A DNA stretch of 64,000 bases. Origin: Anaerolineae bacterium. Lineage in GTDB: Bacteria; Chloroflexota; Anaerolineae; Aggregatilineales; Ch27. The stretch spans positions 17,605 to 81,604 of the forward strand of contig JABLXG010000001.1 in the NCBI GenBank assembly GCA_013178165.1, given 5' to 3'. Position 1 is the stretch's first letter. The number at the start of each line of letters is the position of its first letter. This document shows positions 19,523 to 58,774 of this stretch, one piece after another. Below the pieces are notes generated by a model. It did no database searches and was not told the origin of the DNA. It saw nothing but the letters and a program-made list of their open reading frames with translations. The position numbers and the translations under genes are program-made.

Positions 19523-19527
19523 AGCTG

Positions 19528-22702: not shown

Positions 22703-22738
22703 GGGTGCGTGGTCCAAATCTCCGGCGGAACAGGACAG

Positions 22739-22773: not shown

Positions 22774-22790
22774 AGTGACATTAACTGTGC

Positions 22791-24205: not shown

Positions 24206-24278
24206 TGCCGAGGCCCAGACTTGAACTGGGGACCCCTTGATTTTCAGTCAAGTGCTCTACCAACTGAGCTACCTCGGC
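24206..24278 (-). tRNA. trnF: tRNA-Phe (GAA), CCA not encoded
   Basis: GCCGAGGTAGCTCAGTTGGTAGAGCACTTGACTGAAAATCAAGGGGTCCCCAGTTCAAGTCTGGGCCTCGGCA: 7-bp acceptor stem, CTTGA/TCAAG anticodon stem around GAA, TTCAA T-loop. Confidence 0.96.
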
Positions 24279-28681: not shown

Positions 28682-30958
28682 ATGAGAACCATCTGGGGAC
28701 GCTTTTATCCATACTCGGATGACGCCGGGCATGGTCAGGGCGTTTCAAAACCCGGGGTGGTATTCCGGGCGCTGCTGGCAATTGTAACGGTCGGGCTGGC
28801 CACGGTGATCGTGGGCTATGATGCGCTATTTGCCGGGCAGCAAGCCCTTGCCCTGCAGGTAGGGCAGGTTGCCCCGCAGGATATCCTGGCCCCATTCAGC
28901 ATCAGCTACGAAAGTGCTGTGCTCACCCAGCAACGCATCCAGGTGGCTATGAATAGCGTCCGCGATGTCTACGATCCCCCTGATCCAAGTGTTGCCCGGC
29001 AGCAGGTGCAACTGGCCCGGCAGGTGCTTGACTACATCGCTGATATCCGCGCTGATGAATTTGCCACGCCGGAGATGCTGCGGGCGGACCTGCGGGCTAT
29101 CGAGACATTGGCGCTCACGGATGAGATGGCAGCGGCTATTCTGGCCTTTGACCCGGCGCGCTGGAATGCGATCGATGAACAGATCATCACCGTGCTGGAA
29201 CGGGTGATGCGTACCGAAATCCGGGATGATACCCTGCGTAGCACCAAACAGAACATCCCGAATCTGGTGAGTGTACGCTTTCGGGAAGATGAAGCCGCGC
29301 TGATCTCGGCGATTGTCGAGGGATTGATCCGGCCCAACACATTCTTCAATGAGGAGCGCACGCGGCAGGCCAAGCAGGTAGCTGCGGATGCGGTAACGCC
29401 GGAGGTGCGTAGCTTTGAGCGCGGTCAGATCGTGGTGCGGGGCGGTTCTCTGGTCACGGAGGCGGACCTGGAGGCGCTAGCCCAGCTGGGCCTGCTACAG
29501 CGTTCTCCAGACCGCCGCCTGCAGGATTTGCTGGGAGTCCTGTTGACCAGCCTGATGGTGCTGCTGGTATTCGGCCTGTATCTCAGCCGTTTCCATGACC
29601 CGCTGATGACGGACAGCACCATGCTGAGTCTGGTGGCCGGCCTGTTGCTGGTGACACTGCTGGGGATGCGGCTGGCAGGCCCGGATCGGGTTGTGCAGCC
29701 CTATCTGGTTCCCACGGCGGCGATGGGCTTGATGCTCACGGCGTTGGCTGGCCCATCGGTCGCTGTCGCCGGGACAGTAAGCCTGGCGGTGTTGATCGGG
29801 TTCATGGTCAATAGCCCATTTGCGCTGGCGACGATGACTCTTCTCGGTGGGCTGGTCGGCGTTCTGACTCTAGCGAACACCGAGCGGTTCAACAGCTATT
29901 TTGTCTCTGGCCTGTTGATCGGACTGACGAATGCAGCTGTTGTGTTAATGTTCTTCTTTGATGGCTATCCGAGCGACTCGCTGGGCGCTTTGACGCTGGT
30001 GACGGCTGGTCTGGCTAACGGCCTGCTCTCCGGGGTGCTGGCGCTGATGGGATTGTATGTGATCAGCAGTGTCTTCAACATTCCGACCAGTTTGCGCCTG
30101 CTTGAACTGACCCAGCCCAGTCAGAAGTTGTTGCAGCGCCTGTTGCGGGAAGCGCCGGGTACCTACCAGCACAGTCTGCAGGTGGCCAACCTGGCGGAAC
30201 TGGCCGCTGAGCGGATCGGGGCCAACGCGATGCTGACGCGGGTTGGGGCACTTTACCACGATGTGGGCAAAATGAAAGCACCACATTTCTTTATTGAGAA
30301 TCAGGTCGATGGGATCAATCCGCATGAAGGGCTGAACGATCCGTACCGCAGCGCGCGGATCATCATTGACCATGTGACCGAAGGGGATGCCCTGGCCCGC
30401 GAATATGACCTTCCAGCGCGGGTGCGCGATTTTATCCGGGAGCATCACGGCACCACACGGCCTATGTACTTTTACCAGTTGGCTGTGGAACAGGCGGGCG
30501 GCAATGAAAACGCCATTGACCGTTCCCGCTTTACCTATCCAGGGCCGCGCCCACGCTCCAGAGAAACGGCGATCCTGATGCTGGCCGATAGCTGTGAGAG
30601 CGCGATCCGCGCCCGGCGGCCCAAGAACAAGCAGGAGATCGCTGATATCATACGCTACATGTTTGATCTCCGGGTGGCCGAAGGGCAGCTGGATGACAGC
30701 GATCTGAGCCTGTCCGAATTGAGCGAGATACAGCGCGTATTTGTGGAATCGCTGCAAGGTGTATTCCATCCGCGGATTGCCTATGCTGGCGGGCCGCTGG
30801 CGCCAGCGGCGGCCAGTAGCCAGAACGCACTGGATGGTGCCGGTGAGCGCGAGTGGGAAGCTGCCCCAGGGCAAAGCGTTGTCGAGGGGCAGGATGCCGA
30901 CCATTCCGGCCCACAGCGAGCCGATAACCGGCAAGATAACGGAACAGTGAAACCATGA
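28682..30958 (+). CDS. 7TM-HD phosphohydrolase (PgpH-like c-di-AMP phosphodiesterase family)
   Basis: Large extracellular domain, 7 TM helices, APGTYQHS, YHDVGK, FFIENQ, EHHGT and YPGPRPRSRETAILMLAD. Confidence 0.88.
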   Translation: MRTIWGRFYPYSDDAGHGQGVSKPGVVFRALLAIVTVGLATVIVGYDALFAGQQALALQVGQVAPQDILAPFSISYESAVLTQQRIQVAMNSVRDVYDPPDPSVARQQVQLARQVLDYIADIRADEFATPEMLRADLRAIETLALTDEMAAAILAFDPARWNAIDEQIITVLERVMRTEIRDDTLRSTKQNIPNLVSVRFREDEAALISAIVEGLIRPNTFFNEERTRQAKQVAADAVTPEVRSFERGQIVVRGGSLVTEADLEALAQLGLLQRSPDRRLQDLLGVLLTSLMVLLVFGLYLSRFHDPLMTDSTMLSLVAGLLLVTLLGMRLAGPDRVVQPYLVPTAAMGLMLTALAGPSVAVAGTVSLAVLIGFMVNSPFALATMTLLGGLVGVLTLANTERFNSYFVSGLLIGLTNAAVVLMFFFDGYPSDSLGALTLVTAGLANGLLSGVLALMGLYVISSVFNIPTSLRLLELTQPSQKLLQRLLREAPGTYQHSLQVANLAELAAERIGANAMLTRVGALYHDVGKMKAPHFFIENQVDGINPHEGLNDPYRSARIIIDHVTEGDALAREYDLPARVRDFIREHHGTTRPMYFYQLAVEQAGGNENAIDRSRFTYPGPRPRSRETAILMLADSCESAIRARRPKNKQEIADIIRYMFDLRVAEGQLDDSDLSLSELSEIQRVFVESLQGVFHPRIAYAGGPLAPAAASSQNALDGAGEREWEAAPGQSVVEGQDADHSGPQRADNRQDNGTVKP

Positions 30959-43698: not shown

Positions 43699-44904
43699 TC
43701 AACTGTCCGCAGTGCGCTTTTGCCAGGTAACGTGCTGGGTGCCGCGCGCCCAGCGCCACAGCCCGACCAGGGCGGCCAGATTGGAGCTGACGAAGAAGTA
43801 GATGACATTGAGCAGGCGATAATGCCTGCCGCGCCGTTCCGCCAGCCAGCCAGCCAGCGCCAGGCCATAAAAGGCCAGCTGGCCCAGCAGGATCAGCCCT
43901 CCCCACCAGCCGCGCAACAACAACGCATCTTCCAGAAAGTGGCCTGTCATTGGCTGGCTCAGCAGGACAGCAAGCAGATTGGCCAGGAGGATGAGCAGCA
44001 TCAATACCGGCGTGAGCGGGCGCAATAGCTTATGGGAGAACAATCGGAAGGCAAGTCCTGGAGTGGGGGCTTTGAGGTATCCGGCAGAGAACAGCGCCTG
44101 ATAGCGCCCGGCATTGATACGCACCCGACGATTGAACTCGTCGCTCATCGTTGCGCTGGCGTCGTCGTAGCTGATGGCGTCCGGCTCATAGACGACGCGA
44201 TAGCCCTGTCGCAGGACTTCCATCGCGATGCTGAATTCGTCGTTGATGATTCCGGTGCGCAATGGCCGGAACAAAGCCCGCCGGATGGCGAACATGTTGC
44301 CGTGAACAGCAACAGTGCTGCCAGTCTTGCTTTCCCAACGGCGCAGGGCGGCCTCATAGCGCCAGTACAGGCCGGCAGGCTTGGCGACAGCGGTGGCGGC
44401 ATCCCAGACAGCTAGTGTTCCCACCACAACGCCAACGGTGGGATCAGCGAAGCGTCGGGCCAGGATGCGCAGGCTCTCGGATTCGTAGCTCGGTGAGGCG
44501 TCACTCAAGACCACGATCTCACCAGTCGCGTGGGCAAAGCCAGTATTGACGGCAGCCATCTTTCCCCCGCGAAAGGGTTGCTCAATCAGTGTGACGCCGC
44601 GCACGGCGAATTCCCGCACGATGTCCGGCGTGCCATCGGAGCTGCCATCGTCGACCACCAGAATTTGCAGCCTGTCTCGCGGATAATTCAGCGTGAGGCT
44701 GTTGTTCAACTTGCGGCGGATGACATCAGCCTCGTTGTGAGCCGGGATCAGCAGGGTGAGGGTTGGCAGGCTGTCCGGGGCGGTGACTGGCGGAGTGCGT
44801 TTACCCCGCGCCAGGAGATACATAAATAGTGGGTAGCCGAAGTAGGTCCACAGGAAGGCAGCTACACAGATCCAGAAGATAAATACGAGAATGGGCAGGA
44901 TCAC
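43699..44904 (-). CDS. Glycosyltransferase family 2, membrane-bound
   Basis: LIPAHNE, VVDDGSSD, VLSDAS, INDEF and RRVRINAG; TM helices at both ends. Confidence 0.9.
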   Translation of the reverse strand: MILPILVFIFWICVAAFLWTYFGYPLFMYLLARGKRTPPVTAPDSLPTLTLLIPAHNEADVIRRKLNNSLTLNYPRDRLQILVVDDGSSDGTPDIVREFAVRGVTLIEQPFRGGKMAAVNTGFAHATGEIVVLSDASPSYESESLRILARRFADPTVGVVVGTLAVWDAATAVAKPAGLYWRYEAALRRWESKTGSTVAVHGNMFAIRRALFRPLRTGIINDEFSIAMEVLRQGYRVVYEPDAISYDDASATMSDEFNRRVRINAGRYQALFSAGYLKAPTPGLAFRLFSHKLLRPLTPVLMLLILLANLLAVLLSQPMTGHFLEDALLLRGWWGGLILLGQLAFYGLALAGWLAERRGRHYRLLNVIYFFVSSNLAALVGLWRWARGTQHVTWQKRTADS

Positions 44905-44927: not shown

Positions 44928-46625
44928 TCAGCGCGCACCTTGCCGCTTGAGCACTTGCCCAATTGTACGCAGCATAATCTGAATGTCCAATGCGAAGCTG
45001 ATTTTGTCGATATAGAGCATGTCCCAGCGTAGCCAGTCGTCAAAGTCAGTGCTGCCCCGCGCCCCGATCTGCCACAGGCCGGTGATCCCAGGGCGGACCG
45101 TCAGGCGTTCGGTATGCAACAGGGTATAACTATCCAGCCCCCAGCTGGTGGGTCTGGGTCCAACGATACTCATATCGCCGCGCAGCACGTTGAAAATCTG
45201 CGGCAGTTCATCCAGGCTCGTCTTGCGGAGGATGCGGCCTACCCGCGTCACACGCGGATCACGGGCGAGTTTAAGCGGCTCGGCTAATTTGCCATCCGGG
45301 CCAAGTTTGGCCAGCCCCTGAGCGGCCAACTCCTTGAGTTTGGCCTCGGCATCAGGAACCATGGTACGGAACTTGTACATTTTAAAACGCCGGCCACCCA
45401 GCCCGGTGCGCTGCTGCACAAAGAAGATCGGGCGGCCTCCGTCGAGGTAGACCAGCAGCATCAGGACGAGCATCAGCGGCACGGTAACCGGCATGCTGAT
45501 TACCACCAGGGTGATGTCGATCAGGCGCTTGAGCACCATGTATACCAGACGGGCGCTGGCACTCTGGTATGGCAGCTCGTTAACCCAGAAATCGGGGTCA
45601 TTAGGGTGTTGGCTGCCTGAAGAGGAGGGACGCGGCTGGTCAGCGTAGTCTGTGGGCAGAGGCTGAAAGAGTTGCCTGATCCAGGAGACGGGCTGTATGG
45701 CGCTGGCGGAACGTTTTGTGGCAGTCTCTGCGGTTGCCTGCCTGGATGAGGGTGGGACAACCGCGGAGACCAGTTGATCGCTACGCGCGCCACCCTGCGG
45801 TGGACGCTGCTGATCCTCAGGCTGCAAGGGGATGGGATGCAGCAGGGCAGCATCCAGTAGATCGCGGTAGATGAGACCGTCCTCCGGGAAGGCGGCGACG
45901 CCCACGGCTACTTCCAGGCCCAGGCGCATCTTGATCAGGGTATGAATCTGTCGTGCCAGGCGGATCGCCTGCTCGCGGTCGGTCTCTGGCAGGCAAATCA
46001 CCAGGTTGTCGCCGCTCCAGGCGATGGTATCGCTGCGGTAGATGGCCGACATGGCGATCTGAGCGATGCGCACCTTGAGGTAGCGCTTCTGGAAAGCCGC
46101 CTCCAGGTTGAAACGATCGGTGATGTGTTCCTGCATCTCTTCAAGCCATTCCACCCGCAGGGCGACAAACCCCACCGGGCGGTCGAAGCGTCGGGCGCGG
46201 AACAGCTCATTGTTGATCTTCTCCTCACCTTCGGCCTCGGAGAGCACGCTTGACTTCTCTGGGGTAAGCAGCACGTTCTCAATGGCCTTCTCAATGTTGG
46301 CTGTGGCCAGTGAGATAACACGGGCTACGGAAACGGTCAGGATCAGGACGACTACCTCGGTAATGATCAACGGCAGGGGGGTGTCCGGGTGACCGATCGT
46401 CACTTTGGCAAGGCCGTACAGGATCAGCGTAGGTATCAATACGTACTCTGAACGCTTGCCCAGGTCTGGCAGGGCCAGGATGGTGACAGCGACCATGGCG
46501 GCGATGACATAGACAAAGGAGTCCAGGTCGATGTTGCCGAAATCCTGAATGTCTGGCCGTTCCAGATTGAACAGAATTACCAGCCAGATTGTCAGACCGA
46601 TGAGCAGGAGTCGGAACCTAGCCAT
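44928..46625 (-). CDS. Priming sugar transferase (WcaJ/CpsE-like) fused to an N-terminal TM bundle and a degenerate GGDEF-like domain
   Basis: C-terminal [52 protein letters not shown] and RPGITGLWQ. Middle domain [11 protein letters not shown]...[18 protein letters not shown]...[10 protein letters not shown]. Confidence 0.88.
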
Positions 46626-46858: not shown

Positions 46859-47971
46859 TTAATGTAGAGTCTGATTGATCTTTACCATCCAGGATGCCAT
46901 GATGCGGTAGAACGTCGGGTTGACAATCCAGCGTTGGACCGGTATCCGCCACACTGCATGCCGACCGTTGAATGTTCTTCGCAGGGCTTCCAGGCTTTCC
47001 AGCCATTTCTGCAGCAGGAAACGGCCTTCGTAAAGCGCCAGGAGCAACGGTTCGGGCTGACTGCCGGCGAAGTAGCCTGCCAGGAAGGCTTGACTGAGTG
47101 CGTCGATCATCGCTGGCGTGGGGAAGGTGGCCAGCGAAAGAAGACGCGCCCGGCGGCTCTTAAGATCGGCTACCAGCTTGCCCAGATCGTAGTAGGGACT
47201 GTCCAGTCGATCAAGCGCTGTATCCATGCTTACAACGCTCTGGTCAGGGAGCAGGAAGAAATTACGCGCATGTAAGTCTCCATGCACCCAGACCTGGCGG
47301 TCATCGCTTACCTGCTGCAGGGCGGTGAGGGTCGGCTGCCAGAGCGGCCAGCTTTCTAAGTCCACGCCGCAGGCGCGGAGTTGCTGGACATGTTCCAGCA
47401 GGATAGCCAGGCTATCCGCCGGACCAAAACACCGATCGGCTGGCGCGTTGTCAACGGGCAGCTCATGTAACCAATGCAGCCACTTTCCGCAGCGCTGTAG
47501 CATGTGCATCGCTTGCTTCATCCCCTGGCGGCTGAGCAAATGGCGTGGTGACAGGTTGTTGTCATATAATGGCTGGCCAGGGACAAAGTCCATGATCAGA
47601 GCGTTGATGTCCGGGAGATAGGCTTCCGGGTGGACTGCGCGCAGGTGTGGATCATCCTGTCGGAGGAAATGCCGGTAAACCCGCAGCAGGCTTTCGTACT
47701 CGTGTTGGCCGCGAAGCAGCAACTCTTCGGACTGATACGACACCGCTGCAGTGGCCTGGTCAGGGAAGCGCATGATCTTGACGACCAGCTGGCGTTGTTG
47801 CTGTTTCGTTCCGATGGTCAGGAAGTACAACGTGCTCCAGGGTTTTGTGATGACGGTCGGAGGACGCTGTAACTGCCAGGGGGATGGAAGCGGGTGTTTC
47901 CCATTGAAGTAAGCAAGGACAGCACTGATGGTAGCTTCGGGGGGAAGAAATGTTTCAGGTTTGAATTTCAT
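46859..47971 (-). CDS. Aminoglycoside-phosphotransferase/Kdo-kinase-like kinase
   Basis: LVVKIMRF, LIMDFVPG, WVHGDLHARNF, SMDT and DLGKLVADL. Confidence 0.78.
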   Translation of the reverse strand: MKFKPETFLPPEATISAVLAYFNGKHPLPSPWQLQRPPTVITKPWSTLYFLTIGTKQQQRQLVVKIMRFPDQATAAVSYQSEELLLRGQHEYESLLRVYRHFLRQDDPHLRAVHPEAYLPDINALIMDFVPGQPLYDNNLSPRHLLSRQGMKQAMHMLQRCGKWLHWLHELPVDNAPADRCFGPADSLAILLEHVQQLRACGVDLESWPLWQPTLTALQQVSDDRQVWVHGDLHARNFFLLPDQSVVSMDTALDRLDSPYYDLGKLVADLKSRRARLLSLATFPTPAMIDALSQAFLAGYFAGSQPEPLLLALYEGRFLLQKWLESLEALRRTFNGRHAVWRIPVQRWIVNPTFYRIMASWMVKINQTLH

Positions 47972-48078: not shown

Positions 48079-49350
48079 ATGGAACTGCGTCAATATCTGC
48101 GTATTATACTGAGAAGCTGGTGGTTCATCATCCCAGTGACGCTGATCGCCCTGACGGCGTCCCTGGTATTCAGCTATGCAACCACCCCGATCTACCGCGC
48201 CGCATCGTCGTACGTGGCGGGCCTGGCCCCGGATGTTGGGGCTTCCTCTGATGCGATTATCTACGGCCTGGATACCCTGGCCGGTCGAGAACGCATCTTC
48301 TCGACCTATTGCGGCGTGCTTAACAGCCACAATGTGCGGCAGGACGCCTATCGCCTCATGGGGGTGAGCGATCCGGCAGGGCTGGGCCTGGACGACTATG
48401 TTGTCCAGTGCAATGTTCTGCCCGATTCCAACATCCTGTTGCTTATTGTGGAAGGCCCGGCGCCCACGCTGGTTACAAGGCTAAATGAAGCTGTTGGGTT
48501 GGCCGGGATGGCCCAGACCAACCGGCTATACCGACCGTTCCCGCTAGAACGGCTCGATCCGGTTGTCTTGGAGCCAGAGCCGGTGTCACCGAACTACACA
48601 CAAAATGCGGTGCTGGGCGCGGTACTGGGTCTGGTGCTGGGGATCACGCTGGCATTTGTGGTGGAGTATCTGCGCAGCCCACTCGAACGTATCGAGGGAC
48701 TGACCATCCGGGACCCGAAGCTCGGCGTGTACAACGAGCGCTACTTCCTCAGGCGGTTTGAGGAAGAGATCAAGCGGGCGCGGGTACGCAACCGTCCGAT
48801 CAGTCTGGCCTTCACCCAGCTGGTGCCGGATGAGGACTTCAACCTTCTGGAAGAGCGTGTGCAGGACGCGCTGCTACGTCAGGCGGCTCTGTTTATGCAG
48901 GATTCGCTGCGAGAGGGTGACATTGTGGCCTATTTTGGCCAGCATGTCTTTGGCTTGCTGTTCGCCGAGACGCCGGGGGATGAGGCCAGATCGATGCTGG
49001 TGAACATGCACTATGATATCCGGTCACGCACCTTCCGGTTTGAGGATTTCAGCGCCAGCTTTGAGGCTAAGTCCGGTGTGGTGGAGAGCAGCGGTGGGCT
49101 GCTGGGTACGCAGGCGATGATGGACAAGGCGGCTGAGGCGCTGAGAGATGCGGAACTGGCCGGGGAGAATGCCATCCAACTCATCCGTACGTCGCCGGCG
49201 CCGTTTATCCAGGGCGATACTACCGGTGCTGCGACACCTACGCTGGCGTTTGACGCTTCTCCGCTGGATGACACACTGGGAACGACCTGGAGCACGGGGA
49301 ATCAGCCCCCTGTCTTTGATTCGGAACCTGAGCTACGGGAAGATCAGTAA
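48079..49350 (+). CDS. Wzz/CpsC-like polysaccharide co-polymerase fused to a degenerate GGDEF domain with an RxxD site
   Basis: N-terminal MELRQYLRII.RSWW...TPIYRA, and PVSPNY..NAVLGAVLGL..G before TM2. C-terminal DPKLGVYNERYF, EIKRAR.RNRP.SL, LREGDIVAYFGQHVFGLLFAET and AGEN. Confidence 0.85.
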   Translation: MELRQYLRIILRSWWFIIPVTLIALTASLVFSYATTPIYRAASSYVAGLAPDVGASSDAIIYGLDTLAGRERIFSTYCGVLNSHNVRQDAYRLMGVSDPAGLGLDDYVVQCNVLPDSNILLLIVEGPAPTLVTRLNEAVGLAGMAQTNRLYRPFPLERLDPVVLEPEPVSPNYTQNAVLGAVLGLVLGITLAFVVEYLRSPLERIEGLTIRDPKLGVYNERYFLRRFEEEIKRARVRNRPISLAFTQLVPDEDFNLLEERVQDALLRQAALFMQDSLREGDIVAYFGQHVFGLLFAETPGDEARSMLVNMHYDIRSRTFRFEDFSASFEAKSGVVESSGGLLGTQAMMDKAAEALRDAELAGENAIQLIRTSPAPFIQGDTTGAATPTLAFDASPLDDTLGTTWSTGNQPPVFDSEPELREDQ

Positions 49351-50909
49351 TGGCTGATCGCGTGTTAGTCAGTCCTGGAAAAGATATCTGGCAGTATCTG
49401 GATGACCGCCGGGTGCGCTACCGGTTGCTGGTGACCGGATTTGCGCTGCTGATGATCATCGTGGCACTCATCGGCGGCTATTTGATTGGCACAACTGACT
49501 ATGACTACGCGGTTCTCTTCGGGGTCATCGGGGTAGTTGTGGCGATGCTCGTTGCCGTACGGCCAGTGCTGGGTGTGTACATCCTGACCATCACCGTGTA
49601 TCTCAACCTGTCTGATCTTCTGGAGATCAACCTGGGTATTCCCAGCGCCAACAAGTGGCTGGTTGCCCTGATCTTCGTTGGTGTGGTTGCCAACCATATC
49701 GTGCTGTATCGGCGTCCGCTGGCCCTGGGCAGAACGCAATGGCTTATCATCATGTACGGGGTCCTGCTGTTGATAGGGGCGTTGCAGGCTGAGGAACAGT
49801 CTGTGGCAGTTTCCCAGTTCACTGATTGGGTGAAGGATTTCGTCATCCTGTTTATCGTCGTGCAGGTGACCATCAACGCTCGAGTCTGGATGCGCATGCA
49901 ATGGTTGTTGATCCTTTCTGCGGGGTTAGTGGCGGCGCTGAGCGTCTACCAGATCGTGACCAACGATGTGGGCAATACGTTCTGGGGACTGGCCAAAGCG
50001 CCAGTGCATCAGATTACTAGCGGGTTTGATAGCACCCGTGTGACAGGTCCGCTGGATGATCCCAATTTCTACGCCCAGATTTTGCTGATGGTCTTTCCGC
50101 TAGCAGTGTACCGATTTCTTGAGGAACGTTTCCTTGTCCTTCGCGTAATGGGTGGCGTGGCGGCGGCATTGATCGCGGCTGCGGCGATCTTTACCTATTC
50201 GCGCGGTGCGCTGATTTCGCTGGCGGTGATTGGGATACTGGTCACCCGTGAGCGACAGTGGAGTCCTTATAAGGCTGCGGTGATTGCGGTTGCTGTGGCG
50301 GTCGTACTGGTGGCTATCTTTCCAGTGGGCTACTGGGAACGTTTTGTGCAGTTGCGCGACCTTTTTGTGTCGGACACAGAGTTGCAGACAGAACGCTCCC
50401 TGCGCGGACGCACGAGTGAGATGATCATCGCCTGGCAGATGTTCCTGGATCACCCGCTGCTGGGGGTCGGGCCGGGGAACTACGACAAGAACTACCTTGA
50501 CTACTCATTTCTGCTGGGCATTGACAGCCGACTGCAGGAACGGCAGGCGCATAGTCTGTACCTTGAGACCGCGGCGGAGCTAGGGGCGGTCGGTCTCGCT
50601 GTGTTGTTCGGCATAATCCTCAGTACGTTTGCCAGCCTGCGCAGCGCAAAGCGTATGTTGAAGGCCAGCCATCGATCAGACCTGATACCCTGGGTGACTG
50701 GTCTGCAGTACGGTTTTACGTCGTATCTCATCACCAGCATATTTCTGCATGGTGACTACATTCGATACTTCTGGCTTCTGCTGGCTTTTGCTCTTTCCAG
50801 CGAAGGGATAGCGCGGTCGTTGCTGCAACAACACCGGGCACGGAGGGAACGCGAGGCGGCGGGGAACCAGAATCTGTTTGTCTTGCGGGAAACAGTACGG
50901 ATTTCGTAA
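49350..50909 (+). CDS. O-antigen ligase/Wzy polymerase-family membrane protein
   Basis: About 12 TM helices; R..G...DPNFYA, TYSRGA, HPLLGVGPGNY and AHSLYLETAAELG. Confidence 0.85.
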   Translation: MADRVLVSPGKDIWQYLDDRRVRYRLLVTGFALLMIIVALIGGYLIGTTDYDYAVLFGVIGVVVAMLVAVRPVLGVYILTITVYLNLSDLLEINLGIPSANKWLVALIFVGVVANHIVLYRRPLALGRTQWLIIMYGVLLLIGALQAEEQSVAVSQFTDWVKDFVILFIVVQVTINARVWMRMQWLLILSAGLVAALSVYQIVTNDVGNTFWGLAKAPVHQITSGFDSTRVTGPLDDPNFYAQILLMVFPLAVYRFLEERFLVLRVMGGVAAALIAAAAIFTYSRGALISLAVIGILVTRERQWSPYKAAVIAVAVAVVLVAIFPVGYWERFVQLRDLFVSDTELQTERSLRGRTSEMIIAWQMFLDHPLLGVGPGNYDKNYLDYSFLLGIDSRLQERQAHSLYLETAAELGAVGLAVLFGIILSTFASLRSAKRMLKASHRSDLIPWVTGLQYGFTSYLITSIFLHGDYIRYFWLLLAFALSSEGIARSLLQQHRARREREAAGNQNLFVLRETVRIS

Positions 50910-50983: not shown

Positions 50984-53900
50984 ATGAGACTCCAGGTGCG
51001 TTTAGCTTCCCTTGCATTGTTAAGCGGTCTTGTAGTGCTCATACTGGCGGTCATCCCCGGCGTTACTGCCCAGAATCCGACCCCTACTTTGACACCTACC
51101 CCGGTTCCTTTGCCGGCCTGCCAGCTCTACTACGTGACTGTGGACGAAGGTGTGGTGCGCTCCTGCGCAGGAACGGGTTGCAGCAGAGTGGGTGGTGTGC
51201 GCAACCAGGAGGTTGTGTGCGTTCTGGGCGTTTCAGAGACGCCGGGCTGGCTTCTGATCGATCCAGAACCACAGAATGCTGATTCCCCGATTCGCTATAT
51301 CAGCGCTGACATTGTAGCTCCTGGTCTGCCTGGCTATACCGGGGATGTTGACTGCGAAGCCTGGGAGATCACTGTGCCGGAAGCTGTTGTCCGGCGCTGC
51401 GCGGCGGAAACCTGCGCTGTGGTGGGTGGGTTGCCACAGGGCACCCAGATGTGTGTGAAGGAGTACGGTGGCCAGTACGAAGACTGGCTGTATGTCGATT
51501 ATTCCAGCTATAGCCCGATGAATGGCTGGGTTTTCGTTGATGTTGCCCAGCGCATCCCTGCCGGGACTCCGGTCGCTATTCCTACGCCCAATCGGCCGCT
51601 GGTCATCCCGGCGTCGATCCTCAGCGGTGCACAGACTCAGCCGGTCGCTCTGCAGGTAACACCCTCCCCGACCACTGCTGTGGAACTTGCGCCGCCGACC
51701 CTCACGCCAACGGCCACACTTCCGGTTTGTCCGCCAGGAGTGGTGACAGTAGGTGGAGCGGGCGAGCTCCCCGCCTATGCAGCGGAGTATCCATTCCAGT
51801 TCACCTACGTTGTACGTGCTGGAGACACGCTTCAGGGGGTAGCCGGTCGATTCTCTACAACCGTAGACGTGATTCGTCAGGCCAATGCCCTGCAACCAGC
51901 CGCGGTTATCCTGGTAGGGCAGCGGCTTATCATTCCGGTGCAGACAGCAGATGTCCCCGGACAGATCGTGGAGCCTGTGTCAGCCAGCGCTGGTGCGCCG
52001 GCCTGCGTGACCGCAACGCCCACTCCCATTCTGGCGGCGCCTCAGCAGGTGGTGGCCAGTGGCCCCCTGATTGCGCAGGACGTCGCTCTGGCCAGCTTCC
52101 AGGTGAGCAATGTTGATCTGGTTTCGCCACGGAGTGCTGCACAGTTCCGGCTGGACTTGCCTACCGATTGGCAGCTGGATGGTAACAACGTTCTGTACCT
52201 CAACCTGGAGTACACGCAGAATCTCTCGCCGCTTGCTGATCCCATGCGCCCGCTGGTGAGCATCCTCAATGTCAGGCTGGATGACACGCTGATTTCCTCC
52301 ACGACACTGACGGCTGCCAACGTGGGGTTACAGACGCTGGTGATCCCGTTGCCCTCGTCGCTGTTAGTCACGCCTGAACGGACTAACAGCCACCGGATCG
52401 ATGTCACCTTTATGGCGGATGATTTCTGCGACAGTAACTCGCTTGCCAGGGCGTTCATTCGTTCGGACCTGTCATACTTCCACTTCGAATACCACCGGCT
52501 ATCTCCCAGCCTGGATCTGGCACGGTACCCGGAGCCGTTCTATCACGGGACGGTTATCGGCACCGAGCCGGAGACGGTATGGCTGGTTCTGCCAGATGAG
52601 CCTTCGCTGGCCGACCTGGAATCCGCAGCGGGTATTGCGGCGGCGCTGGGCCAGCTCACTTTTGGCGAATTGCGTATCCGTGCTGCACTGGCTGGCGGGT
52701 TGACCGATCAGATTCGCCGTGAGAACAACCTGCTGCTTGTCGGTGAGATCGGCAAGCATGCCCTGATCGATCAGTTGTATGCTGACAACGCTCTGCCAAC
52801 ACAGCTCAGCGGCAATGTGGTCAGGCTGAGCGGCCAGGAGGTAGCAGAATCGATCGGGCTTGTTCAACTCATTGCCAACCCGGATAACCCCATGCGCGCC
52901 ATCGGGGTAGTCACCGGTCTGAACGAAGCGGCGCTGCGCAAAGCAGCCCAGGCACTTTCTGGCCCGCCATCGGTGTTGAGCCTGGGCGGACCACTGGCGC
53001 TGGTCAGCGATGTGCGACCCAAGGCGGCAGTCCCGGTTGGCATGCGCACCGAAACCACGCTAACTTTTGCGGAACTTGGCGTGACGCAGATGCTGCTGGC
53101 CGGGATCGGCACACAGACAGCCAGTGTCAGGTTTACAGCGCCTGCCACGGCAACAATCGCCCCGGATGCCTCGGTTGATCTCATCTTCACCTATTCCGGG
53201 GCACTTGGCCGGGGTTCGACGGTGACCGTGTTGGTGAATAACACGCCCATCGCCAGTACGCTGCTGGCCCTGGAATCGGTTACCGGCGGCGTAGTGCACG
53301 AGACCGATGAGTTGGGCCGCAATCACCTGCGGGGGCGCATCCCGCCGGAAAGTATCCAGCCTGGCGCTGAGAATACGTTGACCATCCTGGTTAATGGCAT
53401 TGACAGTAACCCTGATGATTGCGTATTCCCCGACCCACTGGTTGCCTGGTTCAATGTCAGCCCGGAGAGTTCGATCTTCCTGCCTACCCAGACAGCTGAC
53501 CCGGCAGCCGTGACGCCGCTGTTAAGCTGGTTCCCGGTACCGTTTACCTCGCTGCCTGATCTCAGTGATGTGTTGATATCTTTGCCACGGGCGGCAGGCG
53601 CTACTGAGATCGAACAGGGTCTGCGGATGGTTGCGCGTCTTGGTGCGGAGACCGTTGGTGGGGAGGCGTTCCGCCCGCGGTTCAGCGTCGGAGACCTGCC
53701 GGAGGGGATCGACCTGGCCCAGTACCATCTGATCGTCATCGGGCGGCCGTCAACCAATCCGCTGCTGGCAGCTCTCAACGCTGATCTACCGCAGCCTTTC
53801 GTCCCGGGCACGGATACACTCGAGCAAAAGCTGGATGACGTAGTCTACCAGTTGCCACCCGGCTACGACGTTGGGTTGCTGGAGATAGTCAAGTCGCCCT

Positions 53901-54424
53901 GGTCACCGGAGCGAGCCATTCTGGTCATTGCCGGGTTGGGTGATCGCGGTCAGGCGGATGCCGTACGCGCCCTGGCGGATAACATCTACTGGCGTGGCGA
54001 TTTAGAAGGCGATGTAGTATTTGTCTCGCCGAACTCGATCGCTGTGATTGACACGCGTACGGTGTATGCGCAGGAAGATCTGGTGACGGCGTTGCCGGAA
54101 CTGGCCACCCAGTCGGCTATCGCGGCTCAGGCGACGAGCACCCCCATCCCGGTCTATACAGTAACACCCGGCCCAACGCCTACAGCAACTGCGACCAATA
54201 CACCGACACCGGTCGTTACCGCAACACCGATTGTTCCCTTGCCATCGCCGACGGCGCCGACACCGATCCCGACCTTCCCGCCGCTTGATCCGGAGCAACT
54301 GCAGCCCGCCCGGATCGGCCAGCCGGAGTGGGTCAATATCCTGCTGGTTATCACAGCGGTTGTACTGGTCACCACGATACTTTTCGGTATCCTGGTTGCC
54401 GCACGTTCCCGGAGGCGCCCTTGA
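50984..54424 (+). CDS. Cell-surface protein: two Cys-rich SH3b-like domains, LysM, BcsB-like repeats and a C-terminal TM anchor
   Basis: Signal peptide; LysM YVVRAGDTL...N.L...ILVGQRLIIP. Two jelly-roll plus alpha/beta repeats (QFRLDLP.DW...LNVRLDD...DLARYPEPF; LLSWFPVPF) as in BcsB, each followed by a ...LVIAG/VVTG strand. Ends with a TM helix and RSRRRP. Confidence 0.72.
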   Translation: MRLQVRLASLALLSGLVVLILAVIPGVTAQNPTPTLTPTPVPLPACQLYYVTVDEGVVRSCAGTGCSRVGGVRNQEVVCVLGVSETPGWLLIDPEPQNADSPIRYISADIVAPGLPGYTGDVDCEAWEITVPEAVVRRCAAETCAVVGGLPQGTQMCVKEYGGQYEDWLYVDYSSYSPMNGWVFVDVAQRIPAGTPVAIPTPNRPLVIPASILSGAQTQPVALQVTPSPTTAVELAPPTLTPTATLPVCPPGVVTVGGAGELPAYAAEYPFQFTYVVRAGDTLQGVAGRFSTTVDVIRQANALQPAAVILVGQRLIIPVQTADVPGQIVEPVSASAGAPACVTATPTPILAAPQQVVASGPLIAQDVALASFQVSNVDLVSPRSAAQFRLDLPTDWQLDGNNVLYLNLEYTQNLSPLADPMRPLVSILNVRLDDTLISSTTLTAANVGLQTLVIPLPSSLLVTPERTNSHRIDVTFMADDFCDSNSLARAFIRSDLSYFHFEYHRLSPSLDLARYPEPFYHGTVIGTEPETVWLVLPDEPSLADLESAAGIAAALGQLTFGELRIRAALAGGLTDQIRRENNLLLVGEIGKHALIDQLYADNALPTQLSGNVVRLSGQEVAESIGLVQLIANPDNPMRAIGVVTGLNEAALRKAAQALSGPPSVLSLGGPLALVSDVRPKAAVPVGMRTETTLTFAELGVTQMLLAGIGTQTASVRFTAPATATIAPDASVDLIFTYSGALGRGSTVTVLVNNTPIASTLLALESVTGGVVHETDELGRNHLRGRIPPESIQPGAENTLTILVNGIDSNPDDCVFPDPLVAWFNVSPESSIFLPTQTADPAAVTPLLSWFPVPFTSLPDLSDVLISLPRAAGATEIEQGLRMVARLGAETVGGEAFRPRFSVGDLPEGIDLAQYHLIVIGRPSTNPLLAALNADLPQPFVPGTDTLEQKLDDVVYQLPPGYDVGLLEIVKSPWSPERAILVIAGLGDRGQADAVRALADNIYWRGDLEGDVVFVSPNSIAVIDTRTVYAQEDLVTALPELATQSAIAAQATSTPIPVYTVTPGPTPTATATNTPTPVVTATPIVPLPSPTAPTPIPTFPPLDPEQLQPARIGQPEWVNILLVITAVVLVTTILFGILVAARSRRRP

Positions 54425-56619
54425 TGCCCTGCAGGATCTTCAGAGCAATCCTGATCATTCTGCTGGGGGTGGTAATTGGCTGTGAAGCAACCAGTGCGCA
54501 GAACGCACCGCTGACATGGTGGGTGGTGGGCAGTACAGTTAAGGTGCTGCCCACCGCCGTTCCTCCTGCACAGCCAGAAACACCTATCCTCCTGTATGCG
54601 GCGCGGCGGGAGTACGTCCCCTTCCAGATTGTGCTGCGTGCCAACCAGATCGCGCTCAAGTTTGATGCGCTTTCCGTGTCCTATCCTGAGGAGTACTTCG
54701 GCCTACAGCTCTATCGTGAGCAGTATGTGCCCATGTTGCATGTTCCGGATCCGGAGATAGTCTCGCTGGCCCGCCTGACGGACGCGGGCGCTATCCCTGA
54801 TGGATTGCGCCCATTTGATAGCCCCTTTGAGGTGCGGACTGAGCAACCCACCGTCATCTGGGCTGATCTCTATGTGCAACCGGAGACACCGCCGGGGGAC
54901 TACACGTTAACGCTGACCATCAAAGGCATGGGCGAACGCCGCGTTACGGTTCGTGTATACCCGGTTGATCTGGAACCGCAACCGGCGGTGACCGTGATCA
55001 TCCCTGAAGACGCTGACTGGACGATCCCCTTCTTTGGTGGCGATGATCCGACAGCTTTCCACCGGGCGATGAATACCTTGCTGCTGGCGCATGGTGTGGT
55101 ACCGGGGACTTTTGTGGCCCAGCCCGTAATGATAGCGGATGGCTGGGATTTCTCGCCGCTGGATGCGGAACTGGATGCGCTTCCGACAGGGGCCTTCTTC
55201 TATGCGCCCCTGCCGTACGACGATCGCTCCGGGCAGTATCTGTTGCGGGATGAACATGGCCGGCCTTATCAACAGGCCATGTTCGACGACCCACAGTTTG
55301 TTCGCCAGGCGGAAGCTTTCTTCCGCGCGCTGGCGGACTATCTGCGTAGCAAAGACCGCCTGGAAGGGGCGCTGGTATACCCGGATGATGAGACGCGCTG
55401 GGTTGGCGATGAACCATGGCATGCCGGGCCGCGTGGATATGCCCGGCTGTCCCGGTGGACGGCAATAGTGCGGGTGGCAGGGTTGCGCGTGACGGCTTCC
55501 GGCGTAGATCCGGTGCCGCCTGGCCCGGCTGAGCTTGGCTGGCTGGACCCCGATCTGGTGACTGATGATACCCACGTGCATGTGGATGTGCTGGATGCGG
55601 CACCGGAGGTTTTTGCGGCCTGGATGTCCAGGCCGGGCAAGAGCAGCAGCGTATACCTGAATGAATATGGCGATCTGATTGACCTGACAGCAGCGATCCA
55701 GCGTGGCCTGATCTGGCATGTCTACGCCAGGGATGTGCGGATGATTGCCGGATACTCGGCGCTGGAATGGGTAGGCAGCGAAGACTACGATCTGGTGGAC
55801 CCGTGGCAGGACGTGACGGCGCTGTACCCGGTATCCGGTTACGGCGGTGGTGCGCTGGTCTGGCCTGGGCCGCAGCCCTCAATCCGCCTGAAACTGTTGC
55901 GGGAGGGCCTGGAAGACACTCGCCTGCTGGACCTGTATGCGCAGGCCACTTCGCCTGAGGAAGCCCGCGACCTGGCCAGGCAGCTCACTCCCGGCCCGCT
56001 GGCCCACCAGAACCCGCCCGCTGATCTCTGGGATCAGGCACATGAGGCCTTGCTGGTGGCGTTGACTGAGGGTGAACGGGCAGACTTCAGTAACTTCCGC
56101 CCGCTGCCAGCGGCAATCACGCAAGACTACTTGCTGATCGATTTTGATCGGCTTGGCCAGCCAGAGGAATGGGGGTTCACCGGTGTGACGGCTGAAGTCG
56201 TTGAGTCGCCATGGGCGGAAAGCGGCCAAGCTCTTCGTCTTACATTTGATTCCGAAGCCAACGAGGCCGGGTTGTGGTTTGAAACGTCAGACTGGGAGGG
56301 GTGGCGGGCGCTGCAATTTGAGGTCAGGAGTCTCAGCCCTTACTTCACCACACTTGATGTTGGTCTCACAGATGCAGACGGACATTACCTGTTGTTGCCG
56401 GACAAAGGGCTGCTGCTAGGGCCGAACGCAGACATGACGGTCACCCTGCCGTTGCTGATTCCAATGGACGAGACGGAGCCTTTTGACTGGTCACAGATCA
56501 GGTATTTCAGCCTGCAGGTGGCAACTTCATATGAAGCGCGGGATGGATTCGGTCAGTGGGGTGTCTATCCGCTGGGGAGCCGTACCCTGATTCTTGATAA
56601 TTTCAGGCTGGTGAAATGA
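54424..56619 (+). CDS. Secreted DUF4091/GH123-like putative glycoside hydrolase with a C-terminal CBM-like domain
   Basis: Signal peptide; LYAARREYVPFQIVL, YPDDET, and G.LVWPG..PSIRLKLLREGLED. Start ATG 54424 overlaps the upstream stop. Confidence 0.7.
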   Translation: MPCRIFRAILIILLGVVIGCEATSAQNAPLTWWVVGSTVKVLPTAVPPAQPETPILLYAARREYVPFQIVLRANQIALKFDALSVSYPEEYFGLQLYREQYVPMLHVPDPEIVSLARLTDAGAIPDGLRPFDSPFEVRTEQPTVIWADLYVQPETPPGDYTLTLTIKGMGERRVTVRVYPVDLEPQPAVTVIIPEDADWTIPFFGGDDPTAFHRAMNTLLLAHGVVPGTFVAQPVMIADGWDFSPLDAELDALPTGAFFYAPLPYDDRSGQYLLRDEHGRPYQQAMFDDPQFVRQAEAFFRALADYLRSKDRLEGALVYPDDETRWVGDEPWHAGPRGYARLSRWTAIVRVAGLRVTASGVDPVPPGPAELGWLDPDLVTDDTHVHVDVLDAAPEVFAAWMSRPGKSSSVYLNEYGDLIDLTAAIQRGLIWHVYARDVRMIAGYSALEWVGSEDYDLVDPWQDVTALYPVSGYGGGALVWPGPQPSIRLKLLREGLEDTRLLDLYAQATSPEEARDLARQLTPGPLAHQNPPADLWDQAHEALLVALTEGERADFSNFRPLPAAITQDYLLIDFDRLGQPEEWGFTGVTAEVVESPWAESGQALRLTFDSEANEAGLWFETSDWEGWRALQFEVRSLSPYFTTLDVGLTDADGHYLLLPDKGLLLGPNADMTVTLPLLIPMDETEPFDWSQIRYFSLQVATSYEARDGFGQWGVYPLGSRTLILDNFRLVK

Positions 56620-57734
56620 CAGGCAGGCGAGACTACAGGGTGCTGCTGGTAGATCTGGCGCGGGCCTATGGGGGCGCAGAAGTCCGCGTGCTCACCCAGG
56701 CCAGGGCCTTGCAGGATGGCGTGGCACGGTGCGCTGTGGCAACGCTGGCAGGTAGCCCGCTACACCAACGGCTGATAGCAGAAGGCTTGCCGGCTGAAGC
56801 GATTGCCATCCAGCGTGGCAATCCGATCATGGCCGGTGTGCTGCGCCGAACCATCCGCGCTGGTCGCTACGAGGTTGTTGACGCCCACAATGTGCAGTCC
56901 ATCCTGTGGGGGCATCTGGCGGCGTTGCTGGCTGGGGCGCGGGGACGGGTGGCCACGATTCACAGCGACTATGGCCGGGAATATCCCGGCGTGAAGGGGA
57001 TACTCTATCGCAGCGTGCTCTGGTTCGACCGGCTCCTGGCCCGGCAGTATATCACCGTGACCGATGTGCTGCAGGCCAGTCTTACGGCCCGTGGCGATGG
57101 TTCCCGTAGTACCCTGATTTACAATGCAGTGCCAGTGCCGGAAGCGCCGTTGTTGTCAGTGGATCCGGCTGTGCGCCCGGCATGGGGAGTTGGCGCGGAT
57201 GATTTTGTGGTGGCGATCATTGCCCGCCTGAAACCAGTCAAGGGCCACTGGTATCTGCTGAAGGCCCTGGCGCTCCTGGCTGACCTGCCGCAGGTGAAGC
57301 TGCTGGTGGTGGGCGATGGCCCGCTGCGTCCGGCGCTGGAAGCGCAGGCGAATATGCTGGGGATTGCTGAGCGCGTGCACTTCTGCGGATTTGTGGAAGA
57401 TGTCCCGGCGGTTTTGCGGGCGGTCGATGCCGTCTGCCTGCCGTCGCTGTCAGAGGCGCTACCGTATGTAGTACTGGAAGCAGCCGCTTTTGCGCGGCCA
57501 TTGGTGGTCACGCAGGTGGGTGGGATGGCAACGCTCCTACGGGATGGCGAGACTGCCCGTGTGGTGCCGCCACAGGATGCGCCAGCTCTGGCGGAAGCCC
57601 TGCGCTGGGTAGCCACGCATCCCGTCGAGCGGCAGGCGATGGGTTTGGCTGCTTACGCGCTGGTCAAGGGTGCGTTCAGTGTGGAGACGATGGTGGCGAA
57701 GACGCTGCAAGTCTACGATCGAGCGCTGGCATGA
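56616..57734 (+). CDS. Glycosyltransferase family 4
   Basis: GGAEVRV, IARLKPVKGH, VVGDGPLR and PSLSEALPYVVLEA. Confidence 0.93.
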   Translation: MTGRRDYRVLLVDLARAYGGAEVRVLTQARALQDGVARCAVATLAGSPLHQRLIAEGLPAEAIAIQRGNPIMAGVLRRTIRAGRYEVVDAHNVQSILWGHLAALLAGARGRVATIHSDYGREYPGVKGILYRSVLWFDRLLARQYITVTDVLQASLTARGDGSRSTLIYNAVPVPEAPLLSVDPAVRPAWGVGADDFVVAIIARLKPVKGHWYLLKALALLADLPQVKLLVVGDGPLRPALEAQANMLGIAERVHFCGFVEDVPAVLRAVDAVCLPSLSEALPYVVLEAAAFARPLVVTQVGGMATLLRDGETARVVPPQDAPALAEALRWVATHPVERQAMGLAAYALVKGAFSVETMVAKTLQVYDRALA

Positions 57735-58774
57735 GCAAAGCACAGATTGCCTTTAAGGTACTTATAGCGCTCAGGGCTCCTGTTTTGCTGAATGCCTACT
57801 GGGGAGCCGACCGGTTGACCGTTCTGGCTTACCACCGGATCGCGGATCCGGCTGCGCCGGGGTTTCAGTACTATCCGCCGAATGTGAGCGCGACGCCGGA
57901 GAAGTTCGCCCAGCAGATGGCGTATATCCGGGAGCACTTCAATGTGGTCGACCTGGAAGCGGTGAACGCCTTCCTGCATCATGGCCGGAGCCTACCACCA
58001 CGCCCGCTGCTCATCACGTTCGATGACGGCTATCTGGATAACTACTCCCACGCCTATCCAGTATTGAAACACTACGGTTTCCCGGCGGTGATCTTCCTCC
58101 TAACCAGCCGCATGGATAACCCGCTGCCGGCATGGTGGGACGAGTGCGCCTATTACTTCCATCACACGCAGCGGCAGGCCGCCACCCTGCCTTTGATCGG
58201 TGAGCGCGACCTGTCGTCGCCGGCGTTACGCCGGGCAGCGTGTGAGGCGCTGGTAGGGCAGTTAAAGCGCATCCCTGAAGCGGAGAAACTGGTTGCGCTC
58301 CGGCAGGCGGGCGAAGCGTTGCAGGTTGATCCACCGGGGCCTGATCCCGATCTATTCATGGCCTGGGATCACGTCCGCGAACTGGTGAACGCAGGAATTG
58401 CCTGCCAGCCACACACAGTCACGCATCCCATCCTGGCGCGGGTTGATGAGGAAGTGCAGCGACGCGAGATTGTTGGCTCGTGCGAACGGATTCGAGAGGA
58501 GACCGGCCAGACGATCAGCGCATTTGCTTACCCAAACGGCGGCGTGGGCGATTACACAGCGACTACCATGCAGTTGCTGCGGCAAGCTGGCATCAGGACG
58601 GCGTTCACGCTGCTAACGGGCCCGCTGCGCTCACAGGTGGCGCGGCAGCATCCGCTGGAAATCCCGCGGGTGTACCTTGGCGGACGCGACACCATGGAGC
58701 GGTTTGTGTTCAAAGTGATGGGTCTGCCCGCGCTGATGGAGCACCCGCCTTTCATCGGCCAGGCCGCAGTATAG
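57731..58774 (+). CDS. Polysaccharide deacetylase (CE4/NodB)
   Basis: VLAYHRI, ITFDDGYLDN, HTVTHPIL and FAYPNG. Confidence 0.92.
   Translation: MSKAQIAFKVLIALRAPVLLNAYWGADRLTVLAYHRIADPAAPGFQYYPPNVSATPEKFAQQMAYIREHFNVVDLEAVNAFLHHGRSLPPRPLLITFDDGYLDNYSHAYPVLKHYGFPAVIFLLTSRMDNPLPAWWDECAYYFHHTQRQAATLPLIGERDLSSPALRRAACEALVGQLKRIPEAEKLVALRQAGEALQVDPPGPDPDLFMAWDHVRELVNAGIACQPHTVTHPILARVDEEVQRREIVGSCERIREETGQTISAFAYPNGGVGDYTATTMQLLRQAGIRTAFTLLTGPLRSQVARQHPLEIPRVYLGGRDTMERFVFKVMGLPALMEHPPFIGQAAV

Follow-up and report, generated by a model that had tools for sequence, protein, structure and literature searches.

A Wzz/CpsC-type co-polymerase with a degenerate GGDEF domain in Chloroflexota: a candidate cyclic di-GMP switch on Wzx/Wzy-type exopolysaccharide synthesis

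What might a catalytically dead GGDEF domain do on a polysaccharide co-polymerase (PCP), at the position where Wzc carries a bacterial tyrosine kinase (BY-kinase)? This question is raised by a gene of an Anaerolineae bacterium (Chloroflexota; assembly GCA_013178165.1), located at 48079..49350 on the + strand of a 64,000-nucleotide stretch of contig JABLXG010000001.1 (positions 17,605 to 81,604). This whole stretch is referred to as the window, and coordinates are given in its own numbering. The open reading frame (ORF) has an ATG start and encodes 423 amino acids (aa), in which a Wzz/CpsC-like PCP module is fused to a degenerate GGDEF domain; Pfam and NCBIfam matches as well as homologues of the same architecture support this layout. 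A sequence-only reading of the window had proposed that the domain binds cyclic di-GMP (c-di-GMP) at an RxxD motif and thereby switches the co-polymerase. Here, the identity of both modules and the loss of catalysis are well supported by sequence comparison, and it is tentatively proposed, by analogy to known receptors and with a probability of roughly 0.45, that c-di-GMP binds the dead GGDEF domain at RxxD and switches the co-polymerase of a Wzx/Wzy pathway. Both parts are of known kinds, and no description of a Wzz-GGDEF fusion was found in literature searches.

A co-polymerase with a degenerate GGDEF module

The N-terminal half of the protein has the topology and the sequence signatures of a PCP. 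Two transmembrane (TM) helices, placed by hydropathy at residues ~13-35 and ~175-199, flank an extracytoplasmic domain, so that both termini are cytoplasmic, in the hydropathy profile and likewise in an AlphaFold2 (AF2) model, which was computed with an alignment of 36 homologues as input and reaches a mean predicted local distance difference test score (pLDDT) of 85.9. In this model, TM1 forms a helix at 14-34, a compact alpha/beta domain covers residues 38-164, and a single helix at 173-208 comprises TM2 and a stalk. TM1 (aa ~13-35; 48115..48183, +) lies within the Wzz N-terminal signature (aa 2-42) and is followed by the extracytoplasmic alpha/beta domain (aa 36-172; 48184..48594, +), most of which is modelled with pLDDT >90. 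At ~135 aa and, in the AF2 model, without a long coiled-coil hairpin, this domain is short and PCP-2b-like. The segment at aa 173-208 (48595..48702, +) then combines the Pro/Gly-rich PCP motif, TM2 and a stalk helix that continues into the GGDEF domain.

At the level of sequence, the Pfam Wzz model scores 24.3 bits on the full-length protein (residues 2-41), just under its cut-off of 25.5, and 26.0 bits on the isolated module (aa 1-205), while all 15 relatives tested match it with a best E-value of 2.4e-11. The TM2 region (aa 159-208) yields weak, sub-threshold matches to GNVR, EpsF, Wzc and CpsC-family models and includes the Pro-rich/Gly-rich stretch EPEPVSPNYTQNAVLGAVLGLVLG, which corresponds to the PCP TM2 motif. 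When a profile of the N-terminal half was compared with PDB sequences, only Wzc was found, once over its residues 409-456 (TM2, E=0.0017) and once over residues 27-75 (TM1, E=0.012). In a relative from another clade of the family (clade 1, locus L029), aa 7-196 can be aligned with the CpsC-family model TIGR01006, where the score of 56 bits is far under the cut-off of 296. The top 50 Foldseek matches listed for the full-length model are GGDEF domains only. Taken together, the product of 48079-49350 is identified as a Wzz/CpsC-type co-polymerase, as had been suggested, and control of polymerisation or chain length is its predicted role.

The recovery of Wzc through both of its TM regions also agrees with the remark that the position after TM2 is held by a BY-kinase in Wzc. 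Pfam and NCBIfam scans detected no P-loop domain in the window protein, the C-terminal tail (aa 371-423) contains no tyrosine and hence no Wzc-type tyrosine cluster, and neither the scanned ORFs of the window nor the related loci that were inspected include a BY-kinase. The proposal that a dead GGDEF module takes the place of the kinase is in line with these results. One BY-kinase candidate, a ParA-like gene near the homologue in locus L003, was rejected as a MinD-type protein lacking a tyrosine cluster.

The cytoplasmic module (aa 211-370; 48709..49188, +) represents a complete GGDEF fold. Residues 211-364 match positions 3-160 of the 161 positions of the Pfam GGDEF profile (E=1.5e-10, 41.6 bits, cut-off 23.8), TIGR00254 is matched at 49.9 bits (cut-off 37.4), and the AF2 model shows the full fold over 211-370. 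Foldseek superimposes it on isolated GGDEF domains (4zmm, 3ign) with target TM-scores of 0.85-0.87 and a root-mean-square deviation of 2.2-2.4 Å over 165 columns. The earlier statement that the protein follows this fold throughout after TM2 is thus backed by profile, model and structure comparison alike. A HMMER alignment to DgcR (6zxm) places REGD on the I-site motif RKSD and FGQHVF on FGGEEF. The RxxD motif R278-E-G-D281 (48910..48921, +) is separated from G287-Q-H-V-F291 (48937..48951, +), which occupies the GG[DE]EF position, by the five residues IVAYF, so that both motifs lie exactly where they had been read.

Several features indicate that this domain can no longer catalyze cyclization. 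GQHVF is devoid of acidic residues and presents H289 and V290 at the positions of the catalytic loop; among 172 relatives, none carries GG[DE]EF, and the final Phe alone is conserved in the motif. In addition, 'ALRDAELAGEN' replaces the canonical 'ALYxAKxxGRN', and therefore the phosphate-binding Lys and Arg, which are K442 and R446 in PleD numbering, become E359 and E363. The fate of the beta1 DxD motif, reported as lost and replaced by TQL, is less clear-cut. In the ungapped alignment to DgcR, the metal-binding Asp of beta1 is opposite Q247 and D-I-D is opposite Q-L-V, which supports the loss of the Asp; TQL (residues 246-248) is shifted by one residue. The family alignment reveals a nearly invariant E252-D253-F254 three residues after Q-L-V, and since this element could be a displaced remnant of DxDxF, the statement that DxD was lost depends on the alignment. 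Independently of the beta1 Asp, the domain is judged from its sequence to be catalytically dead and incapable of producing c-di-GMP, as first proposed, and the RxxD at the I-site position is the only canonical ligand motif recognizable in it. After the last GGDEF strand, a conserved R-T-S-P-x-P-F leads into a disordered, acidic and tyrosine-free tail (aa 371-423; 49189..49347, +; pLDDT <50 at 378-421). R370 and F376, which delimit this stretch, are invariant in alignment A2, and the element may be a docking motif.

The architecture is widespread within one phylum. A word-indexed search returned 43 homologues of the same architecture, and every named organism among them belongs to the Chloroflexota. 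An exhaustive profile search identified at least 387 representative clusters at 50% identity (E<=1e-30), of which the best 150 matches are nearly all full-length and for which the recovered names are likewise all from Chloroflexota (Anaerolineae, Ardenticatenaceae, Promineifilaceae). The family appears to be confined to this phylum. Public databases name members (P0007, P0015, P0029, P0202, P0206 and others) 'diguanylate cyclase', and because the domain is dead and the canonical motif is found in 0/172 relatives, these labels amount to a systematic mis-annotation.

Retention of the RxxD motif and a possible switch

If the active site is dead, the question arises whether the remaining ligand motif is maintained. 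Conservation was assessed over 164 columns of a domain alignment of the 172 relatives, some of which share only ~30% identity, and among 36 close homologues. Across the 172 relatives, D281 is the second and R278 the 15th most conserved column, in a domain whose catalytic motif has fully decayed. Both residues of RxxD are kept in 134/172 sequences, while four retain only the Arg, 19 only the Asp and 15 neither. Losses of the two residues are coupled (Fisher p=3e-9 across the 172 relatives, a statistic that ignores phylogeny), and within the clade of the window protein the Asp is lost in 0/38 sequences that keep the Arg and in 10/19 that have lost it. This joint loss suggests a functional two-residue unit. 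Further columns that co-vary with the presence of RxxD look like subclade markers. Viewed across the family, the alignment suggests that the I-site is under selection.

Degenerate GGDEF domains with RxxD have been established as c-di-GMP receptors in exopolysaccharide (EPS) systems for PelD (PMC2170427) and YdaK (PMC5422440), in agreement with the precedent invoked by the sequence-only reading, which had named PelD and PopA. In PelD, the exchanges R367A, D370A and R402A each abolish c-di-GMP binding and pellicle formation (PMC2170427), and R202A and D205A abolish EPS production in the case of YdaK (PMC5422440).

On this model, c-di-GMP produced by separate cyclases would bind R278 and D281, on the side of the domain that faces away from the dead active site, and would alter the packing of the cytoplasmic domains in the PCP oligomer. 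Such a change would be expected because PCPs are arranged as rings of protomers and intercalated c-di-GMP dimers are known to cross-link GGDEF domains. The rigid helix of TM2 and stalk might then relay the altered packing to those parts of the PCP, in the membrane and outside, with which it engages Wzy, so that polymerisation would be turned on or the chain length changed. Such a switch would represent a second-messenger counterpart of the Wzc/CpsCD phosphorylation cycle; the earlier wording that c-di-GMP binding 'replaces tyrosine phosphorylation' is best regarded as an analogy drawn from the position of the domain. As the site is reduced to RxxD in the lineage of the window, its affinity may be weak or may require a neighbouring protomer or partner.

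The operon and a second GGDEF fold in the priming transferase

Which pathway would be switched is suggested by the genes around the PCP, which heads an operon on the + strand. Its stop codon shares one base with the ATG of a Wzy_C-family polymerase/ligase (TGATG; 49350..50909, +; Pfam Wzy_C 77.2 bits), an overlap that suggests translational coupling. Next follow an extracytoplasmic BcsB-like protein that begins with SH3 and LysM domains and ends in a TM anchor (50984..54424, +; Pfam BcsB 152.7 bits, with LysM and SH3_3 matches and its operon position as further evidence) and a second large protein without a Pfam match (54328..56619, +), whose true start is probably downstream of 54328, at ~54400. 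Homologues of the latter were found in loci L001, L004, L005, L007 and L017; in L002 and L003, a BcsB-domain gene, the second of the operon, occupies its slot. The presence of two large BcsB-like proteins inside a Wzy-type operon is an unusual mix of synthase-type and Wzy-type parts. A glycosyltransferase of family 4 (GT4; 56616..57734, +) and a polysaccharide deacetylase (57731..58774, +) complete the conserved operon. Upstream, an APH-fold kinase-like protein (46859..47971, -; Pfam APH 35.6 bits) is encoded divergently from the PCP gene, at the same position as in L001, L004, L005 and L008; its substrate could be a sugar or a protein. In locus L003, a Pkinase gene together with an APH-like one is located upstream instead. 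The - strand further encodes a priming phosphoglycosyl transferase (PGT; 44928..46625, -), a membrane glycosyltransferase of family 2 (GT2; 43699..44904, -), which is paired with the PGT in five other loci, and, near these two genes, a GH31 hydrolase.

The operon was compared with 17 related loci, whose titles, where present, refer to Chloroflexota, Anaerolineae, Aggregatilineales or 'uncultured Chloroflexia'. Wherever the flanking DNA suffices, these loci keep the order PCP-GGDEF, Wzy, BcsB-like protein(s), GT4 and deacetylase. The gene directly after the PCP encodes Wzy_C in L001-L007, in L009-L017 and in the clade-1 locus L029, whereas the sequence of L008 stops before this point. In L004, a metagenome-assembled genome (MAG) of Chloroflexota (S1bins113), the PCP is 97% identical to that of the window and the gene order is unchanged, so that the two probably derive from the same or a very close species. 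The homologue in L017 (9962-11369; 'uncultured Chloroflexia' MAG) is split by a frameshift into two overlapping ORFs, as either a pseudogene or an assembly error. The PGT/GT2 pair is adjacent in six of the 18 loci (the window and the 17 others). L029 comprises a small PGT, the PCP-GGDEF, Wzy, Wzx, a GT2 and four GT4s and lacks BcsB, which identifies Wzy as the partner conserved across clades. Wzx was also present in L002 and was not found in the 64-kb window. From this gene content, the pathway is assigned as a Wzx/Wzy-type pathway for a lipid-linked repeat-unit EPS. A scan of 46.5-51.1 kb for promoters and terminators returned nothing usable.

The neighbouring PGT contains a GGDEF fold of its own. 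An N-terminal TM bundle leads into this dead fold, which a disordered linker connects to a catalytic domain of the PglC/WbaP type (Bac_transf 212.8 bits); the catalytic domain resembles PglC (8e37) with a Foldseek target TM-score of 0.79 in its AF2 model. The GGDEF-fold domain (aa ~125-265; 45831..46253, -) gives a weak GGDEF sequence match and is detected through the AF2 model, which Foldseek relates to a GGDEF domain of T. maritima (4urg) with target TM-scores of 0.69-0.72. Its motif region reads 'YRSD...GDNLV' and holds neither RxxD nor GGDEF. At least 115 full-length homologues of this PGT are among the matches listed, all from Chloroflexota where named, and members of the PGT and PCP families are found together on one contig or in one MAG also where their genes lie apart. 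In L029, separate neighbouring genes encode the TM + dead-GGDEF module (512-1375) and the catalytic domain of a small PGT (1449-2090); the separate module (287 aa, 30% identical, E=4e-22) reads 'RRTD' and thus retains RxxD. In comparison, the window lineage holds the more eroded version of both dead GGDEF domains. WbaP-type large monotopic PGTs share the layout of TM helices, cytoplasmic domain and catalytic domain, with a domain of unknown function where the window PGT has its dead GGDEF fold. The PGT of Myxococcus xanthus EPS is activated by a single-domain response regulator, whereas none is involved in the window PGT.

Because both the PGT and the PCP possess dead GGDEF domains, such domains mark the initiating and the polymerising membrane steps, and initiation in Wzx/Wzy pathways has been described as a post-translational control point in a 2025 study (PMC12802240). 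A wider and rather unlikely scheme can be drawn from this arrangement: the Wzx/Wzy pathway of Chloroflexota might be gated by c-di-GMP at two membrane steps, with c-di-GMP cross-linking the dead GGDEF domains of the PCP and those on or next to the PGT, either among the protomers of a PCP ring or from PCP to PGT. Initiation and polymerisation would thereby be coupled, and the task that falls elsewhere to the BY-kinase phosphorylation cycle would be taken over.

Other features of the window lie apart from this region. A 7TMR-HDED / 7TM / HD protein (28682-30958, +) has the domain layout of PgpH-type cyclic-dinucleotide phosphodiesterases. An archaeal-style set for DNA end resection (10187-17985, +) comprises a Mre11-like phosphoesterase, a Rad50/SMC-like ATPase, a NurA nuclease and a HerA helicase, and several SH3- or LysM-domain proteins are grouped with a sigma-70-family factor at 18227-24053. 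A tRNA is located at 24206-24278 (-).

Alternative explanations, known systems and significance

A number of observations weigh against a c-di-GMP switch in the window protein itself. In contrast to clade 1 (RxxD in 35 and Arg at position 309 in 31 of 40 sequences) and clade 3 (60 and 12 of 72), RxxD is kept in only 38/57 sequences (67%) of the window's clade, with losses in ~ten lineages, and R278 is conserved no more than average (81st of 164 columns) among the 36 close homologues. At least one homologue without RxxD (P0022, 'PELG') retains a complete operon, from which it follows that the core job of the protein needs no RxxD. The residue equivalent to the third arginine of the I-site (PleD R390 / PelD R402), as assigned from the ungapped DgcR alignment and the spacing from GGEEF, is N309 (49003..49005, +); in the window's clade this column contains Arg in 8/57 and Lys in 11/57 sequences, and among the close homologues it ranks 156th of 164. 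R315, which is 96% conserved, was rejected as a stand-in for PleD R390, being located six residues further on helix alpha3, a spacing that is not equivalent. R402 is essential in PelD, and its equivalent is less conserved among PleD-like proteins (PMC2170427). The window protein thus holds the core of an I-site without the full triad, in a clade whose site is apparently under relaxed constraint and which lends c-di-GMP binding the weakest support. Neither genes for a cyclase, a phosphodiesterase or a PilZ protein nor a c-di-GMP riboswitch were detected in the 64-kb window or within 10 kb of 19 related loci, and a search of all ORFs of these sequences with a hidden Markov model of the domain returned only the PCP genes and the weak GGDEF folds linked to PGTs. 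An Rfam scan of the window returned the single tRNA and no c-di-GMP riboswitch. The AF2 model, finally, depicts a monomer free of ligand.

Much of this would fit a nucleotide-independent scaffold, a somewhat less likely explanation and the main rival, in which the dead GGDEF domain would serve for packing or docking and RxxD would be an inherited relic that decays in the window's clade. Such a module could form the cytoplasmic ring of the PCP oligomer. As a docking site, it could receive other proteins of the pathway, for example the PGT through its dead GGDEF domain, or else the APH-like kinase or an active cyclase. The independent losses of RxxD, the retained operon of the RxxD-less homologue and the missing third arginine are all compatible with it. 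Moreover, the best-conserved residues of the clade are found elsewhere (Y218, N219, F223, R226, E230, R233, the R235/R237/R239 cluster, E252-D253-F254, R267 and R315), the neighbouring PGT contains a second dead GGDEF fold without RxxD, and the PCP and PGT families co-occur as adjacent genes, fused or split, in clade 1 too. What a scaffold does not readily account for is that D281 and R278 rank so high in conservation family-wide despite the lost catalytic site, and that they vanish together rather than independently. In addition, the Arg of this exposed loop is kept in ~70-80% of sequences at 30-50% identity, above what a neutral surface site would show; position 309 stands at 28%. A receptor of the YdaK/PssE kind, targeting a synthase-type machine of membrane GT2 and BcsB-like proteins in place of Wzy and using the Wzz-like part as a mere membrane anchor, is an improbable alternative. 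A TM protein with a degenerate GGDEF domain and RxxD is reported to activate a GT2/BcsB-like synthase in Bacillus subtilis ydaJKLMN and Listeria pssA-E (PMC5422440; PMC4125290), and the window recalls these gene sets with its two BcsB-like proteins and deacetylase in the operon and its membrane GT2 and glycoside hydrolase nearby. Yet Wzy_C, and neither BcsB nor GT2, has been kept as a partner from clade to clade: L029 is without BcsB, and the GT2 is adjacent in only 6/18 loci. The PCP signatures appear to be under selection in the N-terminal module, with Wzz matched in 15/15 relatives, and the PGT together with the Wzx flippase of L002 and L029 indicates a lipid-linked repeat-unit pathway.

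In some degenerate GGDEF domains, what is left of the active site still binds GTP, which raises the much slimmer chance that GTP, (p)ppGpp or another cyclic dinucleotide is the ligand. PleD structures with (p)ppGpp (9g85, 9g86) occur among the Foldseek matches listed, and the acidic E252-D253 is conserved near the former metal site. The remainder of the pocket speaks against such a ligand, as the phosphate-binder positions K442/R446 are acidic (E359, E363), the GG[DE]EF loop has no acidic residue and the column of the guanine-binding Asn is variable, leaving RxxD as the sole conserved canonical ligand motif. The reading implied by the public annotations, a diguanylate cyclase that is active despite its unusual motif, can be set aside almost entirely, even though activity is compatible with rare non-canonical motifs, AGDEF among them (PMC3974145). 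Both acidic residues are missing in GQHVF, only the final Phe of the motif is conserved among the relatives, the phosphate-binding Lys/Arg are replaced by Glu and the beta1 Asp aligns with Gln; this activity was rejected on the grounds of the non-acidic motif and the 0/172 canonical relatives. The preferred explanation is still the binding of c-di-GMP at RxxD.

How would such a co-polymerase relate to characterized systems? PCP-2b proteins of Gram-positive capsule/EPS loci (CpsC, CapA, YwqC/EpsA) and the PCP-2a protein Wzc share with the window protein two TM helices around an extracytoplasmic domain, the Wzz N-terminal signature, the Pro/Gly-rich TM2 motif, a gene beside Wzy and a regulatory cytoplasmic module after TM2. 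The cytoplasmic partner is a fused BY-kinase in Wzc, a separate BY-kinase (CpsD/CapB) in the PCP-2b systems and a dead GGDEF domain in the window protein, which differs from Wzc and CpsC in having no Walker motif, no tyrosine cluster and a short extracytoplasmic domain, while its operon differs from their loci by the added BcsB-like proteins. PelD of the Pseudomonas aeruginosa Pel system is also an inner-membrane EPS protein with a cytoplasmic degenerate GGDEF domain and RxxD, which binds c-di-GMP to switch on polymer production (PMC2170427). In contrast to the window protein, PelD comprises four TM helices and a GAF domain without a PCP module, serves a synthase-dependent pathway and needs the third arginine, R402, where the window protein has N309. 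YdaK and PssE are likewise TM-anchored degenerate GGDEF proteins with RxxD, encoded in EPS operons of bacteria without an outer membrane, and these operons contain a GT2, a BcsB-like protein and a glycoside hydrolase, as found near the window gene. They possess a plain TM bundle instead of a Wzz/CpsC module and act on a GT2 synthase, with no Wzy, PGT or Wzx. PelD, YdaK, PssE and the window PCP are each encoded within the EPS operon concerned. Alg44 of the alginate system has also been described as a co-polymerase and is a c-di-GMP-dependent membrane protein, but its sensor is PilZ and not GGDEF, its periplasmic part resembles membrane fusion proteins and not Wzz, and its pathway is synthase-dependent. 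As reportedly found by Whitney and colleagues in 2015, in work cited in PMC12802240, the cytoplasmic domain of Alg44 must bind dimeric c-di-GMP for polymerisation to proceed.

Direct control by c-di-GMP is well documented for synthase-dependent systems such as cellulose, Pel, alginate and poly-N-acetylglucosamine (PNAG). For Wzx/Wzy pathways, a gap in this respect was still stated in a study from 2025 (PMC12802240). A c-di-GMP-sensing co-polymerase, if true, would address this gap, as it would link the messenger directly to Wzy-dependent polymerisation and would offer a natural alternative to BY-kinase control. The family itself represents a natural experiment, in which clades with a full, a partial or no I-site are present in comparable operons. 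Furthermore, the mis-annotation of its members as diguanylate cyclases would inflate the counts of c-di-GMP synthases in Chloroflexota genomes. Chloroflexota of this kind are abundant filamentous, floc- and mat-forming bacteria, and the PCP-GGDEF system may bear on the formation of their matrix.

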